Below the pieces are notes generated by a model that saw only the letters and a program-made list of their open reading frames with translations, was not told where the DNA came from and made no database searches. A stretch of 64,000 bases of DNA, from the NCBI GenBank assembly GCA_000182565.2, contig KQ257454.1; one strand, written 5' to 3'. Shown piece by piece: positions 36,848 to 50,789 of the stretch (within the stretch, counting starts at the first letter, position 1; each line of letters starts with the position of its first letter). The position numbers and the translations under genes are program-made. The DNA comes from Spizellomyces punctatus DAOM BR117. Its lineage: Eukaryota.

Positions 36848-39289
36848 ATGGTTCCGCGGTCTTCGATGGCAGCGTCGTCCAACTACCACGAGCAATCATC
36901 GGTGGAACGTCGTGGTGGCAGTGGTGGAGGGGACGACCCTCCCAAGCGGAACTCAAAGCATCGGACGCCGACAGATCCGGCCAAAGTCTGGGCATGTGAT
37001 CGATGTAGGTGCTGCCGTTTAATCACAAATCGATTGATGCGGTCACTTTCTAGTGTTGATATGGCATGAATTAGGCTACCGTCTCAAATACCGATGCGAT
37101 TCACAACGCCCGACATGCGGCAGATGCCATGCAGGGGGCTTCGAGTGTGCGTACGGATCTCGGCAGGTACGCTCCGTTTCTGCCCCACGAGATGGACGCA
37201 AGAAGCGACGGTACGACACTGCGGGATATATTCGAATGCTAGAGTCCAAGATGAGAGATCTGGAAGAATCTTTTACGGGGATGGAAGAGAGTCCGTCGAC
37301 TGATTGGGCGAAACATGGGGAGGGAGATTGGGCGGGGGAGGGAAGTTCGGGATCTGGGGGGCCTGTTACGGTTGAGACGACGTCTTTTGGCGGCTTGCCC
37401 CAGTATTTGCAGCCACTCTCAGCACCTTCTTCAATGATGCATCAGCCCCATCAGCACCAGCACCAGCACCATCAACACCATCAACACCATCATCACCATC
37501 AACACCATCATCACCATCAACACCATCAACAGGAAATAGATCAGCATGCCGCGCTAACGTCTCCTGAAACCATTGGCATGTCAGAGTTCTTTCCCGTTCA
37601 TATACCGCATACCCACCATCAAAACAGCAATCCCAACAGCACCAGTCAACCACCTACCGCCTACGGCACCTTGGTCAGCTCCAGCGACCTCTTCACTCAA
37701 CCCGTCATCAAGGATATTCTGCGTGCCTACTTTTCAGACGTCTGCCACAGATGGCTTCAAACCCCCATCCACGAAGCCACATTTACTGCAACTTTTGACT
37801 TGCAGCCCCTCTTTTTGATTTACAGTCTATGCGCCATGGCGGCCTCCACGAGTGACAATGCTCTTTTGAAGCTGTATGCACAGGAACGGGGCTGGCCATT
37901 TTATCGCGTTGGGGAGGTGTACTTTCGGGAGGGGCTAAGGATGTTGGGTGAGGTAAACGAAAGGCCGAGCGTCGATGCTGTTATTGCGTTGGGGCATTAC
38001 AAGGTTGCGGCCACAGTGATTGATCAGAGTAAGTTTGTTTTTTTAAATTTTCGTATCACCGTTGCTGTTTCGGCGTCGCTTATTCTTGAAATCTGTCAGC
38101 CGAATGGTCCGGCCATTTCCGTAAGATGTCCATCACAATGGCTCTCAAGTTAAAGCTGCATATTGATCCAGACATTGAGACGGTGCATGGACCGTTAACG
38201 TGGTTAGAAAAGGAGAAGCGACGACGGACATGGTGGGGACTGTTTGTGGTGAGTGATTTGAACCTTCAGTGTTCGCTTTTTGGTCGCTGTCAAAATGGGG
38301 GAATACTTATAATAAAAAAATAAAAACATTAGATGGACACAATAGACTGCAATCAATCCGACCAAATCCCCATCATCCCTCACCACCTGCTACCCTTCTG
38401 GGACGCGTCGACAGCTCCCTGGTCCGTCAAGCCCGTCTCACCCGATTTAATATGGACTTCTGTCACTTCGTCAGCAGACACTCCCGTGCTCAGCGCATTT
38501 ATCCCTGGAACACATTTGGATGTTGCGAAAATCGCCCATACGTTGACGGGATTGTATATGCGGATTCAGAGGTTGAGGGGTACCATTTGGGATGTCGAGC
38601 AAGCGGTGCTGGGAACCAGACACGGTGGTAGATTAGCGAATAGAGCAAGTGGGAACAGCATGGCACCCCAACCGAGAACGCTGACACCAGAAATCCAATC
38701 GCAAATTGACCAATTGGACAGGAAACTTCAATCCGTCTTGGAGCTTTTCCCAACTTGGGCTCGCAACATTGACACCTATGACAAGTTCACTCCCTCAACT
38801 ACAAGCACCTACCCACCTCCCTGGCAACTCTTTTCCCAACATCTCGTCTGGCATTGCCTGAACATTGCCCTTCATATCCCCACTCTCCTCATCGACGGCC
38901 AGCAAGCCCAGTCTTCGCCCAACCTCCGCCTCAGAAACACATTCACAATTTGTCTATCCCACGCACGCCGAGTCTCACAATTACTCCACAAACTCAAACG
39001 CATTAATCCGGAAATTAAATATCTCACGCAATGGTCATGCTATTTTGTATTCTACTCTTTATTAGTTCTTGTGATGGATTCCAAGACATCGATGGATGTA
39101 CGACATTTGGCGGAGGTCAAGCGCGATGTGGATGTGCATTTGTGGTTAACAAAAAGTTTGGGGGAAAAGTCTTTTTTGGCGACGAATATGCATCACCTTG
39201 CCCTCTCTGTTGTTGAAGACGGGTTTGGAAGCATGGGAGAAGGTGAACAGCCCATGCTGGCTGGGTGGAGTGCGGGAATGTTGGGATGA
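36848..39289 (+). CDS. Zn(II)2Cys6 fungal transcription factor
   Basis: Spliced ACDRCR-RLKYRCDSQRPTCGRCHAGGFEC; middle homology region LHIDPD..WLEKEKRRRTWW; His/Gln tract. Confidence 0.9.
37440..37530 (+). repeat. CAY/CAR trinucleotide repeat encoding a poly-His/Gln tract
   Basis: HQPHQHQHQHHQHHQHHHHHQHHHHHQHHQQ. Confidence 0.9.
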
Positions 39290-41398: not shown

Positions 41399-42889
41399 CT
41401 ATGATTTGCCCTTTAGATCTAACCACTCAAAAAATCCACAATTGGATCCAGATTCGATACCGGACGTTTCATTACCCCCACCTGCACACATGTAAAAGTA
41501 CCGACCGAGGTTGGACTCCTTTTTGATGACAACCCTCAACTCGGTGGGATTTCCGCATCGACAGACGGGTATATTGTCCCGATACTCTGGCCTTGCAACT
41601 CGGAATGTAAGGTTGATTCGCGTGTCCTTGGATATTGGGTGCTGAATTAAAAGTTTCGGGTTACATTTTGGCACTTCATGTTTGTATTCCTCCTGGTGAA
41701 AAAAAAACAAAAAGACGATGAATGATCCGACGAGTAGAGGACCACCTATTCCTGATACCATACCTGCATGGGAGGAAGCATGATAAGCAAAGAATTGTGA
41801 GGCAGCATAATATTAAAAGTCTGAGGTACAGGTCCTCCTGGGCGTCTAATTCTCCGTACACGGAATGGTCGAGTCGCTCCCAACGTCAATGATCCTATAG
41901 TTGGACGAGGACCAATGTACGTCATCTAAAGAGAAAAAAAAAAAACCAAACCCCTTATTGAACACCAATGTATCTCAAGCCCCAATGACTCGCTTTTCCC
42001 GCACCTTGTCATTGTGTGCCCCAACTCCCTCGGCCGCACCACGATAACAATTCGCCAAAACAATATTTGGTTCCCATATTCCGACCAATTCCGCTGGATG
42101 TCTTCCCCCTTGGACATGATCGCGTTCGTCAAGTGCCCGATTTACTCGTTCGGCAATGAGTGAACGAGCTTGGGCGAGTTCCGGAAACATGGTCCTCACA
42201 TCTGTTGTCTTTTTACCTCCGTAATAGTATTCAACGTCTGGTGTTGACGATGAGGACGTGTATGGCTCGTCGGTGTAAAAGCTCGTTGTATGCGGTGATT
42301 CGACCTCTGGTGTCCAAAACACTGAGTACAACTTACAACTTGAAAGGGATGAAAACAATAACCTACCACGGTCAAACATGACAAAACGCTTGATCTTCCA
42401 AGACTCTGCCTCAACCATTAACTTTTGCAGCAGTGAAGCGGCTAATTCTTCGGGAAGCACATCCAGAACCAATTGGCATGGTATATGCTCTGCAACCTCC
42501 TTGGCCGTCAGAGTCCTTGGAGGTAGTGATACACCCTTTGCATCCTCTGCATGGAGGGACCCTGAACATAGAACCTCAAACGCATTTCGGCTACCCGGAG
42601 AACTAGTCGTCGTCGTCCCAGGTTGACTTGCGTCGTCGCTGACATCAACATGTCTGTCCAAATGCATCTTCTTACCCCCCCGTTCACTTCCCCCAAAGAA
42701 TTCGTCTATCGTTGCACCATGTTTTCTCTTGTTTGTCCCTCCACTAACATGCCCTTCCGCATTTCCTAAAAGTATTTCCACAGCTTGCTCAACACGTCCT
42801 TGAGCAAAGTCCAAAGCGTCGAGAAGATTTCTTTCGGAACGGTCGTCAAATATGCTCAACAGTAGGGCTAACTTTGCGTCCCGGTCCAT
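41399..42889 (-). CDS. CUE-like + AlkB 2OG-Fe(II) dioxygenase + GRF zinc finger protein
   Basis: N-terminal KLALLLSIF..LLDAL..GRVEQAV; NCYRG..VGAHND; YKHEVP; RINLTFR; CRCG..GRYFYMC..CGFFEW. Confidence 0.85.
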
Positions 42890-44589
42890 AAAGCGTTATC
42901 TACTGAATAGGTTTTCTGGATGTCACGGTTCCAGTAAATGTAGTTGTGGAGAGCAATTAGAGATGTTGCCCAATCCCAAGATCTTGTTGAGGCACAGTTT
43001 CACTTGAGGCTTGGCTCCGACCGATATTCCCTCCTCCGAATCTGAGTTCGTATGACTTGCAAGATTTGTGACCAGTTTACATTCCATGCTAAGGCCGTTC
43101 TTGCAAGTCATGCCCACCGGATCTCGCTTGCTGGTATCGCGATTCCCGTAGGGCCGTGGTACATATTTCATACAAACATTCGGAATCCCATCTCAGTTCG
43201 CCTGCCACATACCATTCATTGCCCCTCAAAAGAACCTTGGACATGACGAAAGATTGTAATAGAGCTCCCACAGATTAACGCTACGTTTACGACAGACATG
43301 GTCAGGTCACAGTACGGCATGCACACAGATAATCTATTTACAAGGATGGTACCGTACGGGCTATTACAAAGCTTTCCTCGTCCAAAACCATACGGAGGTG
43401 ACTAAATCCAAAAACCATCGCTAAGTATCACACCCTGCCCACCTCGCAATCAATGGACTCAAACAAGAACAGAATACCGGGCGGGGACTCGAACCTCAGG
43501 TCACGTATGGTAGACCATGCTGACACCGGCGTGGAGGATTCAGAAAGCAAACGATGGACCGGTCATTGAATGTGGACCTTTGCCAGGATATTCACACTGG
43601 CCCTCGGAACCCAGTCACCAGATTGACCCACTGTACGCAAGTGAACTCGATCTAGGGAGCTCAGGAGCATCGAAACGCTCACACAACCCTATATCATCTT
43701 GCGCAAACCTAGCTGTAAATGGCCTACGCCCCTCGTAAATATGAAAGATGCAAGAAGGATTAGCTAGATAATCGCTTTAGCGTGCTATGACGAACTCTAG
43801 GGTGCCCGCCCTGTCCCGCTATTCGAGGCAGTACAGTTGTTTGGACTCATGACTAATCCCGCAGCATCATCACCCCCAATTTAGTCACTCCTGAACCCTG
43901 TGATCAGCATTGGAAGAGCCCGTCGTCCTAGCTTTGGTGCCCCGAGTCAGGTTAACGCCGCACAAATCGAAGTGGGTTCTTTCCAGTATCTACGCAGGGG
44001 CGTGGCTGCTCCGATCGCCGTTTAACCGACGTCGTCGTTGTCTGAATCGTTGACCCTTGATCGTCCAATTGGGCGTAGCCGTAAGCAGCACTTTGCAAGA
44101 AAGCCGATTCATCATGGTCCTGCGTGCTTGCGCGTTGTCGTCCACGTGGTTTCGTAGCGCCGAGGTCTTGTGCATTGAAGTCGTACCAGCCGTTGTCATC
44201 GAGTATGGTCCAAACCTCGTTCGTTGTTTGCTGAAGTTCGATCCTGTCCTGCTCGACTTACTACCTCCGAGAGGCGTCGGCGTATATATTAAGAAAAGGA
44301 GCCAATCCCAACATCCACATCCACTCCCCCAAGCCAGCTTGGGATCCTGAGACGTGCTTGGTCACCGTGGGTAGTGTGTTTAAAATGATTGCCAGAGCAA
44401 AGCATCCAATTCCATAACACAGCCAGATGGGCTACTGGACCGCCAAGCAGCAATATATGAGATGAGAAGTGCGAGTGGCGACATTCGCTGACGAGGAAGC
44501 GGGTCTGTGAAACAGAATGGAAAGGCTGGACGAAGATGGCTCGATTGTTCAAATTTAACGTTCACAACCGGGCCGCCTTCCACCTGTTC

Positions 44590-45560
44590 CTGGCCCTCCC
44601 TCCGCTCGAAGGCATCATCGGGTTACCCACGCAGTGGGTAAGTAGTCGCTCCAACCAGCGCGAACTACAGTCCAGCTCATCCAAGTACACTGTCCTCCTC
44701 CGCCCGAAGGCATCATCGGGTTTATCCCTCGGCCCGCAGGCGGCTTCATTGGGACCAGCAGCCGCCCCACCAGCGCGGTCTGCAGTCGGTGTCCTCCGCG
44801 GCCCTCCCTCAGTCACAGACATATTGGGTTACCCACACAGTGGGTAAGTGTTTGCTCCACCCAGCGCAAACGACAGTCCTGTTCATCCAAGTACACTGTC
44901 CTCCTCCGCCCGAAGGCATCATCGGGTTTATCCCTCAGCCCGCAGGCGGCTTCATTGGGACCAGCAGCCGCCCCTCCAGCGCGGTCTGCAGTCGGTGTCC
45001 TCCGCGGCCCTCCCTCAGTCACAGACATATTGGGTTACCCACACAGTGGGTAAGTGTTTGCTCCACCCAGCGCAAACGACAGTCCTGCTCATCCTGCACG
45101 GCCCTCCCTCCGTCACAGACATCATCGGGTTACCCACACAGTGGGCAAGTGTTTGCTCCACCCAGCGCAAACGACAGTCCTGCTCATCCGGCACGCCCTC
45201 CCTCCGTCACAGACATCATCGGGTTACCCACACAGTGGGCAAGTGTTTGCTCCAACCACCGCAAACGACAGTCCTGCTCATCCGGCTCGGCCCTCCCAAC
45301 AGCCACAGACATGTTGGGTTACCCACGCAGTGGGTAAGTAGTCGCTCCAACCAGCGCGAACTACAGTCCAAGTCATCCTCCATGGCCCTCCCAACAGCCA
45401 CAGACATGTTGGGTTACCCCTGCAGTAGGTAAGTAGTCGCTCCAACCAGCGCGAACTACAGTCCAAGTCATCCTCCATGGCCCTCCCAACAGCCACAGAC
45501 ATGTTGGGTTACCCACACAGTGGGTAAGTAGTCGCTCCAACAGCGCGAACTACAGTCCAT
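44590..45560. repeat. Tandem array of ten ~95-108 bp hairpin-rich units
   Basis: Unit cores (GGGTT) at 44620, 44718, 44826, 44924, 45032, 45127, 45221, 45316, 45411 and 45506. Each canonical unit has the inverted repeat TTACCCAC-NCA-GTGGGTAA. Confidence 0.92.
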
Positions 45561-45589
45561 GAAGAGCTTGGGGGGGAGGGAAGGGTGCC

Positions 45590-45940
45590 TTTTTATAACT
45601 TTCAGAGGCCCCCCAACACGTCGCGAAATAACGCGCAGCATTACTGCGCACAGATTACGTTAGTCTCCCCACCGACAATCTGCATTTGGTAATATTGGTA
45701 GCTTTTACGGTATAATGATTCACGCGTAAAATTAAATATTTTCATTTGGGGACATAAATGAACACCCGTGGAGCAAAAGATTAATTTGATTGGTCCAAAA
45801 ACTCCGCATTACCAGGGCTTTTTTTCTGAAATTAAACTTGATTTGGTAAAATAGAGGTTTCGGCACGCTTTCTGATTGGCTGAAAGTCTTAGGTCGCCAT
45901 CATCCAACGTGGCCGGATGACCCAGACTGATTTTGATTGG
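45590..45940 (-). promoter_or_regulatory. Putative Pol II promoter (three CCAAT boxes plus TATA) firing into the repeat array
   Basis: Minus-strand CCAAT at 45936-40, 45875-79 and 45789-93, TATAAAAA at 45590-97, then a pyrimidine-rich tract before the first unit. Confidence 0.5.
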
Positions 45941-48224
45941 CCAAAGATTTGTAATTTACCGGAGCCGACATTAAGTTACCAGCCCCATTCTTGCCTCTGG
46001 GTGCTGGCGCTCTTTAGTGGCGTCACAATTAGGAACATCGCCTGCAATGAACTGCCCGTCTTGGTTGGTAAAGGTTAACATAATTTAAGTAATACGTCTC
46101 TTGAATGAGGGCATTGATGTAAGATCCGCAAGGAAGAATAGAAATATTGGGCAGGAGCCGCTTCAGGAAACTGACTGTGATGCACACCGGGGCAGTTACA
46201 GGGGTGATTTGAGCTACTGCTGTCAAGTCCCCAACTCGCATCGATATGATCACCGAACAAGTGGTTGGATTTGAATTACATGCTTTAATGGGTGGCAGAT
46301 AAAGTAATAGCCAAGTAAAACCACTGCTGTGCTTGTCCGGTGAATACATCGACAGAATATTTGCAGTCCGAAGTGGAAACACATACTGGCACTGACGTTG
46401 ATGAACTACCGTTAGAAAAATAGGGAAATGTAAATAACGCCATGTCATGCTTGCTGAGATTATATAGAGCTCTTGTCGTTCGATAGCAGCTAACGACCTA
46501 CATCCAACTTATCCAAGTTTACGATGGTGGATAAAGGGCGCAAGGCTCTTGCTCTTTCCAATGTAACTAATTTCCCCAATTCATGTATATGAAAGAGGCC
46601 TCCTTAATGTAGCAGGCAAATTAGTCTACACAGTGCTAGAATACAGGATAAGGACAGAATCCAATGCTGCGTTCGTTTGTAAAAGCCGCTCTTGTATTAG
46701 ATCATTTCTGTGCTAACCTTTCACTTGGCAGGGTATTTCTGCGACTTTGGGTGTGAGCGTCACAATAATCGCAGCATCTCTGAAGCTCCTCTAAGCTCTC
46801 GAGGGAGCATCTTCGCTCGGATTGTTATCCGTGAGGAGCGGTAGGGGAGGTTCTGGTCGGGCGTCTGGAATACACCACTGGCGGGGGATTGTTACCAGTG
46901 CCTCTACTGTGAGGAATCCATTAGATAAAAATAGGCAAGATGATGGTGTTATGGAATGGTTGTTTTCCAATGGGATTCGATATTTTCTTTTTCAGGTTCT
47001 TTCTCCAGTAATGTCCATTGGGCATTTCAATTATTGTCGTCATAGTCACCATCCTGAACGATGTTGGTTGCGGAAAAGACATTCAATACATGACGGGTAG
47101 ATTCTACCTGGTTCAATAGGCAATCTGGTTTGGTGGCCATATGACTCGCTCGCATACTGGTCTATGTCTCGTGGTCCCATTCATCGTTTACGAGTATCAC
47201 CGTCGATATATGCAGGTAATTGCTCCCAATATAGCGCATCTGCTGTTAAGCTTCCGCTTATGGCCATATGTTAGTTCCCTTTCAGTCGGTGCTCCTGTTG
47301 TCTGCTTCTGTTGGGGATTCCGGATTTACATTATTTCTATGAAGAACATGATTACAAGACGTTACGGGGAGCAGGCTTCTAAATAGAATATTCGATCAGA
47401 ACCCAAAAACCTTAAATTCCATCTGCGGTACCAGTTCGCCTATGTTTTCCAATTAGTCCCAAGGTTCACTCTCGGATCCAAGGTTCACCGGAAACCTGAA
47501 GTAGGACCCCAAGCAGAAACCTTAGTTCTAAGATAAATTCTCCGACCGATCAGTTACATGAGAACAGATATCAACTGGATGGCTCCAAGTTTTGAAATGT
47601 AAGCAGCAGCTTCTCGCCCTCGTTGCACGCTGTCAGAGAACGCGGTCGGCTGTCGCAAATGCGGTAGACGTCTTGGACGGCTTTGTATCAATGGCATACA
47701 ATAATTCATTGGCAGAATTGCTGTTTCTGGATTTTTCTTCTTGGGCTGCAGCACATTACTTCCTTCATTCCAACGTCGTCTCACAGAAAAGACGGATTCT
47801 CGTTTCGGTTCCTCTGAAGGAGATTGGCTGGCGACTAACCAATTCTAGGCAATTCCGCAGCACCTCGCAGACTTTCATGTGAATTTACAAAAATGTCGGT
47901 CGTTAAATAAAGGTGTTATCATTGAATGGCCATTTACTGTCCATTTACAGCTCGATTCCAGCATTTACAGCTTTTGGTTGCATGGATTCACAAGCACAAT
48001 CAGCAATCAAAGACCTTCATCAGGTACTTCTATTGTTGGAGAATCCTCAGCGATTCCTCCTAGATCTACTAGAAAAGTAAGTCAACGAAAGTCTCCAATC
48101 GTTCCCATCAGCCGACAATTCCCCCAGACAGAGCATTGGACGCGCTACATCTGCTGTTGCGGGGACAACGCCTTATGTGACTTGGTGAACGCGTTGGGCT
48201 CTGAGGCTTTTCTGCTTACCCACA

Positions 48225-49436
48225 ATGCGGCTTTTCCTCCCATTCAGCAGCACACATTCCAAGTCTCTTTGGCTACCAATCAGACGATCGGGTGTGCGTG
48301 TAAGAACAATGGCCACTGCAGAAAGGGCAGGACACCGGTTACCCAAGACCGCCGCCGATGCGCTGTATTCAATGTATGCAAACGAGCTTGGGGACAGGTT
48401 CGTAATTGGCAATTCTCCCTAGTAAGGCGGACAAAGTGCTCTACAATGTTGAGTCGTACTGACCATATCACCTCTTTGTAGATTGAAAGCTCTGGAGAAT
48501 ACAATAGATCCCTCAGTACCTCCCGAAAGTCCATTTATAATACGACTCGATGGCGTCTCTTTCCGAGTTTTCACCAAAGGCCTGCGAAAGCCATTTGATG
48601 AGCGCCTGACGGATGCATTGATTGACACCACCAAGGATCTGATGTGGAGATTTGGTGCTGTGCTGGGGTATTCCCAGTCGGATGAGATATCGTTGGTGTT
48701 TCCTCCAGCTTGGGTGGCAGAACCTGCGCCAGCGGACAACGCACTTGAAATCGCTCCTGGAACAGTTGGAACAGCAAACGCACCACCTTTCCCGCCGGCA
48801 GTGACGAGTCCACCATCCAAACCAGTTACACCACAAAAGCACATGTACTCTGGGCGCGTCCAGAAGTTGGCCTCCGTAACGGCATCCTACGCTACAGCAC
48901 GCTTAAACTACTATCTATCTGCGCAGAACTGGGACGATCTTGCTTCACAACATCGAGAACGGATGTTAGCACACGTTGCACATTTCGATGGCCGAGTGGT
49001 ACCAACGTCGGACGCAAAGTCTGCCATGGAATGCATCTTTTGGCGATCAAATTTTGATGGATTCCGGAACAGCATATCCCACATTTCTCACTCGTACTTC
49101 ACATCAAGGCAGCTTCATAATAGAGGGTTGGAGGAACAGTTGGAGATGCTATCAGAAAAGGGTGTTGATCCATTTCAAGAGTATCAGGCCAAGTTCCTGT
49201 TCGGAACCTGGGTCAAGAAGGAGCAGTACGAGCTGCATGGAAGGATAAACCTAAAGACGGGGACACCCGTTCAAGGTCCAGTGCTTCGATCTCGTATCAG
49301 GACTGGGTCCTTTAACTGGGCGGACTGGAATGAGGATGAACGCATTCGATTTACTATGGCTAAACATTGGGCGATTGATCCGTCAAGTCCTCCAAAGCAT
49401 CCCCTCCCAGTGACCAATAATAGTGAATCTCTGTGA
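48225..49436 (+). CDS. Thg1-like protein (3'-5' nucleotidyltransferase) with probable mitochondrial presequence
   Basis: Spliced ELGDR-LKALE (intron 48398-48481), IIRLDGVSF, KPFD, YSQSDEISL, GRVQKLAS and HFDGRV. Arg/Ser-rich, acid-free N-terminus. Confidence 0.9.
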
Positions 49437-49604
49437 ACAGATTTTCTTTTCACATTGTACATCTACTATCCATCTCACCTTTGGTCTCCCCACTTTTTTG
49501 TACTGTCTACTATATGATACCTATATTATTGCTATGTATATCCACTATGGAGAATATCTCAAACACCAAATTTCAATCCAAAATTTGGCGGTGTCGATCA
49601 AATA

Positions 49605-50789
49605 TTAGGACTCCCAAATGGTCAAACCAATCGCAGCTATTACCCACGACCATAGCCAATTTGATTGGGACGCCAATCTCTTTGTTGAGAGTGGAACCCC
49701 ATTTATCCCAGGTTGCTCCTCGTCAGACACCTTCAGAGGAAAGCTGGATGTTACAATATACCCATTTATCTTTGTTTGAACAAACACGTTGTACTGGCCG
49801 CCCTTAAAAAAGTAAAGCCCAAAACCAATGGTATTCGAAGTTCTGTCGAAAGCAGGGGGATCCTGATTGACTGAGCACACTGGCTGCCACTTCACACCGT
49901 CTCCTTGTCGATATCCTAGCAGTTGCTGAGATCGTGTGAAATCGTCTCCTCTCACCAATGTAATAAGAGCATCTTGACCGTGAAACTTTTGGAATCCGGA
50001 CGTTGCTATGTCATGTCCGGTGGAATTCGTTACATAATATTTGGCCGTAAAAGGTCGACAGTATGATATTTTGATCGAGCCGCTCTGTGGGCTCGAAAGT
50101 ACCACACGGAAGGTTCCATTCGTGACCCAACTTTTTGGATCGATATTGTCATTCGGTCCAGGAACTTGTACGGCGTGGTCTTGATAAATCCATGGATCTG
50201 GCAGTGTGTCGTTCGGCCCGGGAATCACTCCCGTCACCCGCTGATCAATCGACTTTGGTGGAGGAATGGCTGCATTACCAGAAGGCACGGTGACATATAG
50301 AGTGCTTTCGGTCGGCTGCATTGATACGTTAAGAGTCATATTCGGGACAAGGAATGTGAATTGTGCAGAAATAGCATATGCCCCCGCAAAGGGTAGCGTT
50401 GGATATATCGCAAAGGTATCCGAGTCGTTGGCAATCTTGCCAAATTCTTCGGGGCATTGACGGATCAATGTGTTGAATGACTGGTGGGCGATGACGAATC
50501 GTAGACGACAACCGTAAACTTCTTTGAGATTTTCCCATTTGAGCTATTGGAAATCAAACATCGGATAAGCTCAGAAAAACCGTTGATTTAAGGCTAGTCG
50601 CGTAAAGCTGTTCTTTACCGCGTAGTCGTCTGACATGGCTTGGAACAAAAGTTGGTTTTGCTGACCAACTACTCCAGTGAAATTCAGTTGCTTGACAGTC
50701 AAGTATGGTGTGTATTGAGCGTATGCGCCATGAAGAAGGCATAGCGCCGTTATCAACAGCGGTGGTAACAGACGCGAAAGGGAACTCAT
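49605..50789 (-). CDS. Secreted/cell-surface protein of unknown function
   Basis: Signal peptide MSSLSRLLPPLLITALCLLHGAYA, a long beta-rich exon and a hydrophobic C-terminus. Confidence 0.65.

Follow-up and report, generated by a model that had tools for sequence, protein, structure and literature searches.

Does a kilobase of hairpin-forming tandem repeats make up a functional RNA, or is it a minisatellite whose transcription is a by-product? This question is raised by positions 44592-45559 of a 64,000-nucleotide stretch of the Spizellomyces punctatus DAOM BR117 genome (assembly GCA_000182565.2, contig KQ257454.1), which we refer to as the window and whose presented strand we call plus. An initial annotation, made from the sequence alone, had read these repeats as a candidate multimeric non-coding RNA with compensatory stem changes. 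RNA reads in a single orientation show that the array is transcribed. We interpret the locus as, most likely, a lineage-restricted non-coding RNA built of tandem repeats; it may plausibly have a structured, multivalent function, but a neutral transcribed minisatellite comes close as a rival.

Organization of the tandem array

The interval 44592-45559 holds ten head-to-tail units that form one tandem array. Tandem Repeats Finder (TRF) described it by two rows, one at 44592-45094 with a period of 206 (2.4 copies, 93% matches) and the other at 44998-45558 with a period of 95 (5.9 copies, 91% matches). Using the motif GGGTT[AT] as an anchor, we located copies at 44620, 44718, 44826, 44924, 45032, 45127, 45221, 45316, 45411 and 45506, and the spacing of these anchors returns exactly the ten units and the periods that the initial annotation had given (Table 1). 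Moreover, a 206-bp dimer is duplicated, as units 1-2 and units 3-4, and unit 1 is itself a combination of parts from three unit types. This is the sole large array of the 64-kb window, the remaining TRF rows spanning at most 65 bp. When the dimer, unit 8 and both flanks were compared with the window by blastn, the units gave only chance matches of at most 19 nucleotides (nt); thus, the array is not a dispersed element within these 64 kb.

The GC content of the array is 0.59-0.635, compared to 0.41-0.55 in the flanks, and its plus strand is C-rich, with a GC skew of -0.18 to -0.29. The GC-rich segment of unit 2 (37 nt) has a long-range pairing of its own (CCGCC/GGCGG). Non-coding head-to-tail units of about 100 bp place the locus among the minisatellites, a descriptive class that is silent on function.

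Transcription of the array

Transcription was assessed in X21, a run of raw RNA reads filed under the same species label; it is an ordinary cDNA library, of which about 6% was sampled. Against 43600-49600, 1039 reads were placed, 851 of them at an identity of at least 99%. With the first mate on the minus strand, the depth in successive bins over 44605-45609 was 8.5, 8.3, 16.2, 13.6 and 8.45. For first mates on the plus strand, the values were 0, 0, 0 and 0.2 across 44605-45408, followed by 2.65 in the final bin (45409-45609), in which the opposite-orientation transcript begins. At the edges, the left flank bin (44404-44604) had a depth of 0.83, and the minus orientation gave 0 beyond 45610. 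For scale, the 3' peak of the neighbouring tRNA-His guanylyltransferase gene (Thg1) reached a depth of 85, against 8-16 over the array. The reads lie in one orientation, which rules out DNA contamination, and no splice joints were listed for the X21 reads over the array at this depth. The initial annotation had tied its proposal to the existence of a transcript, and a transcript in a single orientation is what these reads indicate.

One-orientation reads over about 1 kb and no coding signal are the features of a transcribed, repeat-built long non-coding RNA (lncRNA); the assignment to RNA polymerase II (Pol II) is drawn from the TATA and CCAAT motifs described below. If the first mate is sense, the short opposite-orientation signal at the right edge (Table 1) would be divergent from the same promoter region. 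Contigs of three further data sets (X6, X9 and X10, one recorded as RNA and two presumed to be RNA) contain only short pieces at the array edges and are silent on strand and on array transcription. One X6 contig of 151 nt matches 45408-45533 without differences but opens with 25 letters that are unrelated, which would mean a different array edge in that sample or a chimeric contig.

Two start positions recur among the X21 reads on the minus strand, 45183 (9 reads) and 45277 (8 reads), each behind some 9-10 unmatched letters; they are 94 bp apart and fall at the same phase in units 6 and 7. A further 7 reads start at 45286. These recurring starts could reflect an RNA end that occurs once per unit or a priming bias, and the X21 pile-up table lists no pile-ups of read starts over the region.

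Strand of the RNA and promoter-like motifs

The transcribed RNA is probably the minus strand, as suggested by the mate pattern of X21, by the Thg1 control and by promoter-like motifs. Second mates make up 9 of the 1039 placed reads, and the X21 records have a mean of 39 letters (1029 million letters in 26.39 million records), the longest being 60. The run probably pairs a 60-nt cDNA read with a read of about 18 nt, the latter being a barcode read at the poly(A) side, and a barcode-like second mate at that side would imply that the first mate is sense. In the Thg1 control, which lies on the plus strand, the depth with the first mate on plus was 0.77, 11.4 and 85.5, rising toward the stop codon, and 43.7 in the 3' flank. 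This gradient has the shape expected of a 3'-biased sense library, and the absence of start-site pile-ups is unlike a reverse 3'-end kit. The repeats had initially been written on the plus strand; given the Thg1 3' control and the promoter-like motifs on minus, the complement of that strand is more likely to be transcribed.

These motifs, a TATA box, a pyrimidine tract and three CCAATCA boxes, lie at the array edge and upstream of it on the minus strand (Table 1). Three of the 16 CCAATCA matches of the window fall within 154 bp; the window total is at chance level (14.4 expected), and the clustering alone is unusual. The cluster, at 45787-45940, sits in an AT-rich stretch (GC 0.41-0.45) and, judging by its motif, is a possible target of the CCAAT-binding complex. 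In filamentous-fungal promoters, CT-rich tracts precede start sites, and a layout of CCAAT, TATA and CT tract is typical.

Several points weigh against transcription of the minus strand. In most stranded libraries, as the read-mapping tool cautions, first mates are antisense, and the control is a single gene, whose signal could be the long 3' untranslated region of a convergent open reading frame (ORF) at 49605-50543. Even coverage over about 1 kb is odd for a 3'-biased library, and a motif scan found no AATAAA, no ATTAAA and no A4 run on either array strand. The evidence from wobble pairs is split: hairpin 1 favours minus, where 2 of 64 cells are broken against 4 of 64 on plus, and H0 of unit 1 favours plus.

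Hairpins of the repeat unit

Hairpin 1 (H1), defined as TTACCCAC-NCA-GTGGGYAA plus GT, gave 8 matches at up to 3 mismatches where 0.01 were expected. Seven of these are exact and one, in unit 9, has 3 mismatches; both 108-bp units lack the hairpin 1 initially described. Hairpin 2 (H2), followed by AGTC, was found in 10 of 10 units, all of which conform to one of the three versions proposed earlier: A in units 3, 5, 6 and 7, B in units 1, 8, 9 and 10, and C in units 2 and 4. The single 3' bulge ascribed to hairpin 2 is indeed kept in all versions, but its position varies, from base 7 of the 3' arm in A to base 5 in B and C, so that the pairing of version A is shifted in register.

Hairpin 1 adjoins hairpin 2 with a linker length of zero, and a third hairpin, H0, lies just 5' of hairpin 1 and closes on GGG. 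Units 8-10 carry it as CCCAACA..TGTTGGG, with a stem of 7 bp, and units 2 and 4 as CCCGA..TCGGG; the stem of units 1, 2 and 4 has 5 bp. In unit 8, H0 occupies 45295-45318 (7 bp), H1 45319-45337 (8 bp, 3-nt loop) and H2 45338-45364 (8 bp plus one bulge, 10-nt loop); AGTC follows at 45365-45368, and then a spacer of about 25 nt. When unit 8 was shuffled, a perfect 8-bp stem appeared in 142 of 20000 shuffles and two non-overlapping perfect stems of at least 7 bp in 4 of 20000. At the level of the window, 5 of the 13 perfect hairpins of at least 8 bp fall within the array of about 1 kb, and GTGGGTAA occurs 15 times against 1.7 expected, 12 of these occurrences being inside the array.

In version C, the hairpin 2 loop reads, on the minus strand, GCTGGTGGG in unit 2 (44758-44784) and GCTGGAGGG in unit 4 (44964-44990). 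The former contains the E. coli Chi octamer and the latter does not; in a fungus, this is probably a coincidence.

Is the pairing maintained by selection?

The compensatory changes claimed for the stems are borne out insofar as the hairpin 2 arms differ between versions yet keep pairing. Both partners are changed in three pairs, and pairing holds in 91.7% of cells, compared to 29-52% with slid partners. The native arm pairs have energies of -6.8, -7.8 and -11.4 kcal/mol, while 4 of 6 chimeras reach only -1.9 to -3.8 kcal/mol. Random substitution sets of the observed size kept the 8 closing pairs in 335 of 20000 cases from A to B, in 704 of 20000 from B to C and in 166 of 20000 from A to C. For the hairpin 2 alignment, which has only 6 distinct rows in 3 versions, 0 of 500 shuffles reached the covariation score of 0.40 (0.23 in shuffles), but 131 of 500 reached the count of doubly changed pairs. 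All 4 differences within versions hit the 10-nt loop and spare the 17 arm positions ((10/27)^4 = 0.02), so that the loop, which had been called near-constant, is the part that varies. All versions moreover retain a one-base bulge, their arms being 8 and 9 nt long; this argues against simple arm-to-arm template switching, which would erase the bulge.

The array as a whole folds below 20 of 20 dinucleotide shuffles on both strands, with z values of -6.4 on plus and -2.2 on minus that are inflated by pairing between the repeated palindromes of different units. In single-unit folding, units 8 and 10 alone stand out, the plus strand of unit 8 having a z of -3.1 (100 mononucleotide shuffles).

Other results speak against selection on structure. 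Most units alone fold like shuffles, the 20 unit-strand folds ranging in z from +0.94 to -3.1. With RNAalifold, run on the 8 of 10 units that are not of C type, the covariation terms amount to only -0.3 and -0.09 kcal/mol, and a single pair is doubly changed. Two hairpin 2 chimeras stay stable through G.U pairs (-6.0 and -7.2 kcal/mol), only three independent hairpin 2 versions exist, one of which needs the shifted register, and the three doubly changed pairs that form the compensatory pattern are reached in 131 of 500 shuffles. Hairpin 1 is down by 2-3 pairs in unit 9, and the C-type units do without it. In addition, Monttinen and Loytynoja (2022; PMC8794818) describe replication template switching that creates and repairs stems without selection, and template switching is reported to be stimulated in highly transcribed yeast DNA (PMC3820800). 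Overall, the support for a selected structure is real but thin, and we put forward only tentatively that the unit folds into abutting hairpins whose hairpin 2 pairing is under selection.

Coding potential and known RNA classes

The initial annotation considered a coding repeat unlikely, and we agree. The plus-strand ORF of 231 aa had no homologues among proteins of 127-405 aa, the minus-strand ORF of 86 aa had none among 1.84 billion representatives, and 6 of 6 ORFs tried were without a Pfam family at E < 0.1, nothing being found below E 0.17. The frame is broken by every period except 108: the earlier remark that most periods are not multiples of 3 is right for 94, 95 and 98, whereas 108, alone among the periods, is one. 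A protein-coding tandem repeat is thus not what the periods describe.

A search of 3001 and of 621 bases with Rfam cmscan (both strands, E up to 10) gave nothing near threshold. The best matches, both to a C-type unit, were the archaeal C/D-box RNA sR10 with 15 bits (gathering threshold 45) and the H/ACA RNA HgcG with 10 bits (gathering threshold 77). The unrecognised ribozyme suggested earlier thus found no counterpart in any ribozyme or other Rfam family.

Individual classes were also examined by their motifs and were set aside. For a C/D-box small nucleolar RNA (snoRNA), RTGATGA and TGATGA occur 0 times on either strand, and CTGA 0 times on plus and 3 times on minus over the 10 units. For an H/ACA snoRNA, the stems of 7-8 bp have no internal loop, and ANANNA occurs once on minus and 6 times on plus, not once per unit. 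Small self-cleaving ribozymes (hammerhead, hairpin, twister, pistol, hatchet, HDV-like and VS) gave no cmscan match, and CTGATGA and CTGANGA are absent. ARAGORN reported 0 tRNA or transfer-messenger RNA genes in the whole window, which leaves no tRNA or tRNA-derived short interspersed element. As for spliceosomal introns or introner-like elements, CT[AG]A[CT] occurs on neither strand, the distance from GTAAGT to CAG is only 33 nt, and the reads have no joints; GTAAGT itself is present in 6 units on plus and in none on minus. A telomerase RNA was considered because of GUAACCC on the minus strand, but this motif has 8 occurrences and the full template is missing. CAGTGGG starts Tc1/mariner-type ends; the reading of hairpin 1 as the terminal inverted repeat junction of an element resembling a miniature inverted-repeat transposable element was dropped, as there are no other copies and no TA duplications.

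Homologues

The exact hairpin 1 pattern had 0 matches in metagenome contigs. In a synteny scan of metagenome contigs with the ORF of the AlkB-like neighbour, 179 stretches matched, of which tblastn confirmed 0. No homologue was therefore found in any collection searched (metagenome contigs and protein sets), which counts against a functional RNA. Sequencing runs that hold parts of the locus carry an identical or 99%-identical sequence and thus add no divergence. In the literature, at the level of listings, the 19-nt hairpin 1 string had no match, and work on fungal tandem-repeat or minisatellite RNA included no such array.

Proposed function and alternative explanations

Our preferred interpretation, which we hold with reserve, is that of a dedicated unspliced non-coding Pol II transcript with ten copies of a two- to three-hairpin module, acting by multivalent display to a binding protein. 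The array would be the body of this unspliced transcript of about 1 kb. The minus-strand RNA would start about 30 bp downstream of the TATAAAAA box, with the three CCAATCA boxes before this box and the pyrimidine tract after it, and would run, as a G-rich RNA, from 45560 to about 44600 toward the AlkB-like gene 1.7 kb further on. Each unit of about 95 nt may form two or three short hairpins that directly adjoin one another (H0, H1 and H2), with the H2 pairing possibly maintained by selection, and the roughly ten modules could then provide a multivalent platform, decoy or scaffold for a putative hairpin-binding protein. As a fallback, transcription could have a cis effect on the co-oriented AlkB-like gene. 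A more ambitious form of this proposal seems unlikely to us: the unit would be a new structured RNA module, with coaxially abutting H0-H1-H2 and a spacer of about 25 nt, whose pairing is selected through compensatory change and which, as a fungal counterpart of NORAD-type decoys, is cut unit by unit into RNAs of about 95 nt or titrates a protein. Possible cutting once per unit is hinted at by the recurrent read starts at 45183 and 45277.

The alternative that comes closest is a neutral transcribed minisatellite, possible though somewhat doubtful, in which a GC-rich, strand-asymmetric palindromic unit was amplified by unequal exchange and gene conversion, so that the hairpins are inherited, not selected, and the RNA arises as a by-product, from a promoter that is nearby or was captured. 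What looks like compensation would then stem from few events, from paths that tolerate G.U pairs or from palindrome correction at the DNA level. The higher-order structure, with its duplicated dimer and mosaic unit 1, is in keeping with this, as are the mostly shuffle-like single units, an RNAalifold covariation near zero, the ease with which shuffles reach the double-change count, the decay of hairpin 1 in unit 9 and its loss from units 2 and 4, the lack of homologues in the searched collections, and the selection-free creation and repair of stems by template switching (PMC8794818), a process reported to be stimulated in highly transcribed yeast DNA (PMC3820800). It accounts less well for promoter motifs exactly at the array edge, for arms spared by 4 of 4 within-version differences, for a helix that only 0.8-3.5% of random substitution sets keep, for a bulge retained in all versions and for three abutting hairpins at a frequency of 4 in 20000 shuffles. 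Quite unlikely, in our view, is a DNA-level element in which the palindrome TTACCCAC-N3-GTGGGTAA, and perhaps hairpin 2 too, would supply putative sites for a dimeric DNA-binding protein and, repeated ten times, serve as an insulator, a roadblock terminator or an upstream activating array, or in which the G-rich transcript would make the array prone to R-loops, the RNA sequence being irrelevant. The enrichment of GTGGGTAA in the array and the identity of palindromes on both strands would suit such a role, as would the GC skew, which places a G-rich minus-strand RNA over a C-rich template. The half-site resembles the yeast Reb1 site, TTACCCG, but departs from this consensus at the last position; moreover, the hairpin 2 arms change sequence yet stay complementary, unlike sequence-specific DNA recognition, and the hairpin 1 palindrome is missing from C-type units.

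If the RNA were instead the plus strand, as in the orientation of the initial annotation, it would be C-rich and end near 45600, and its six GUAAGU motifs, which resemble 5' splice sites, could recruit the U1 small nuclear ribonucleoprotein without splicing. The usual antisense polarity of first mates, the more negative array z on plus, the confinement of GTAAGT to that strand and RNA-library contigs covering 44361-44614 just upstream would agree with this. We nevertheless consider it very unlikely, as second mates are almost never placed, the Thg1 3' gradient implies a sense first mate, the leader is missing (depth of only 0.83 in 44404-44604), the promoter motifs lie at the opposite array end and hairpin 1 variants break pairs on plus. 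Small orphan peptides or a coding repeat are highly improbable: the minus strand of the array does have 26 ATG and ORFs of 63-86 aa that start with MSV..., the first AUG being at 45561, but the 94-, 95- and 98-bp periods rotate the frame, neither homologues nor Pfam families exist among the sequences searched, and many upstream AUGs disfavour efficient translation of any single ORF. A known small-RNA class, be it a polycistronic snoRNA cluster, retrozyme-like ribozyme multimers or tRNA-derived elements, is scarcely credible. Tandem Pol II snoRNA clusters exist in fungi, the unit length of about 95 nt would suit, and sR10 weakly matches the minus strand of unit 4 (15 bits, E 0.3-1.4); however, this score is far below the gathering threshold and concerns a C-type unit only, box C occurs 0 times, and there is neither a ribozyme family nor a tRNA.

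Genomic context

The window was assigned to a filamentous fungus, and its genes include a chitin synthase that has a myosin motor head, as well as Thg1 and a Zn2Cys6 factor. The array sits in a gene-poor stretch between an AlkB-like gene on minus and Thg1 on plus (Table 1). Over about 5.4 kb (42900-48300), this stretch contains no recognisable protein gene; low one-sided RNA signals at 43600-44001, 46615-47016 and 47419-48021 were observed, and it may hold further non-coding transcripts. Further on, Thg1 (plus) and an ORF of 312 aa without a Pfam family (minus, 49605-50543) are convergent, with 168 bp between their stop codons, and overlapping reads in both orientations lie between them at 49436-49605. 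A 9-bp repeat, CACCATCAA, is present in 7.2 copies at 37467-37531, inside the ORF that carries the Zn2Cys6 domain, where its period makes it an in-frame coding microrepeat. The window also contains 246 N letters from 22341 on, a gap or a masked stretch.

Table 1. Positions of the array, its units, the promoter-like motifs and the adjacent genes
Feature	Position	Strand	Remarks
AlkB-like 2-oxoglutarate-Fe(II) oxygenase gene	41978..42888	-	ATG at 42888; next gene downstream on minus, 1.7 kb past the array
Tandem array	44592..45559	- (probable RNA strand)	ten units: 98, 108, 98, 108, 95, 94, 95, 95, 95 + truncated 82 bp
Unit 1	44592..44689	-	mosaic: left part resembles units 2/4/6/7 (CATCATCGGG); hairpin 1 loop GCA; hairpin 2 version B
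Unit 2	44690..44797	-	108 bp, C type; 37-nt GC-rich segment in place of hairpin 1; hairpin 2 version C
Unit 3	44798..44895	-	A type
Unit 4	44896..45003	-	108 bp, C type
Unit 5	45004..45098	-	A type
Unit 6	45099..45192	-	A type; hairpin 1 variant GTGGGCAA: A.C on plus, G.U on minus
Unit 7	45193..45287	-	A type; hairpin 1 variant as in unit 6; two hairpin 2 loop changes
Unit 8	45288..45382	-	B type; best-folding unit; three abutting hairpins
Unit 9	45383..45477	-	B type; hairpin 1 degraded by 3 substitutions, 5-6 bp remaining
Unit 10	45478..45559	-	B type; ends after AGTCCA (truncated); one-base deletion in hairpin 2 loop
Short opposite-orientation transcript	45560..45810	+	depth with first mate on plus 2.65 (45409-45609), 6.22 (45610-45810), then at most 0.6
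Pyrimidine tract, 16 nt, CCCTTCCCTCCCCCCC	45570..45585	-	between TATA box and array
TATA box TATAAAAA	45590..45597	-	31 bp upstream of the first base of the array; one of 3 matches in the 64-kb window (2.0 expected)
Three CCAATCA boxes	45787-45793, 45873-45879, 45934-45940	-	230-380 bp upstream of the array
tRNA-His guanylyltransferase (Thg1) gene	48310..49436	+	stop codon 49434-49436; strandedness control

Comparison with known systems

Few fungal lncRNAs have a sequence-level rationale for their action, and this locus offers a compact, testable case: a promoter-like region, a transcript that is nearly all hairpin modules, and natural stem variants that keep pairing. Protein binding or processing of the module would make it a new RNA family and a simple system in which to study the multivalency of RNA decoys. 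Were it neutral, the array would be a clean example of a transcribed palindromic minisatellite that mimics covariation, and a warning for structure-based screens for non-coding RNA.

The Xist A-repeat belongs to a repeat-built lncRNA and consists of hairpin-bearing tandem units. Human NORAD is reported to have repeat units that bind Pumilio and SAM68 (PMC7617650, PMC8192489 and PMC5828396). Like these two, the array would give a Pol II transcript made mostly of tandem units, with short hairpins and many copies of one module. Unlike them, it has a fungal host and no sequence similarity to either, its units are much shorter than those of NORAD and far more alike (~91%), which makes the array look young, and its protein partner is only putative.

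With minisatellites, the array shares unit size, head-to-tail order, a higher-order 206-bp repeat, high GC and a strong GC skew; it differs from them in its promoter-like motifs at the edge, its confined strand-specific transcription and its three abutting hairpins with pairing-preserving differences. Fungi and plants have polycistronic clusters of C/D-box or H/ACA snoRNAs, which are also arranged in tandem and transcribed as one precursor. The tandem units of about 95 nt are similar, but the array lacks boxes C/D and any Rfam match above threshold, and its units are near-copies rather than different guides. Multimeric self-cleaving satellite and retrozyme RNAs are likewise transcribed tandem arrays of short structured units, whereas the array has no ribozyme match and the hammerhead core CUGAUGA on neither strand.

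The stems attributed to template switching in PMC8794818 resemble those of the array in that multi-base changes keep complementarity at a transcribed palindrome; in the array, by contrast, the two arms still differ in length (8 and 9 nt), and each of the three versions has a bulge. Moreover, the doubly changed pairs between versions B and C flank the bulge on both sides, and a single arm-to-arm copy would have removed it. The array belongs to no curated RNA family; it would work like the repeat-built lncRNAs, and it looks like a minisatellite.

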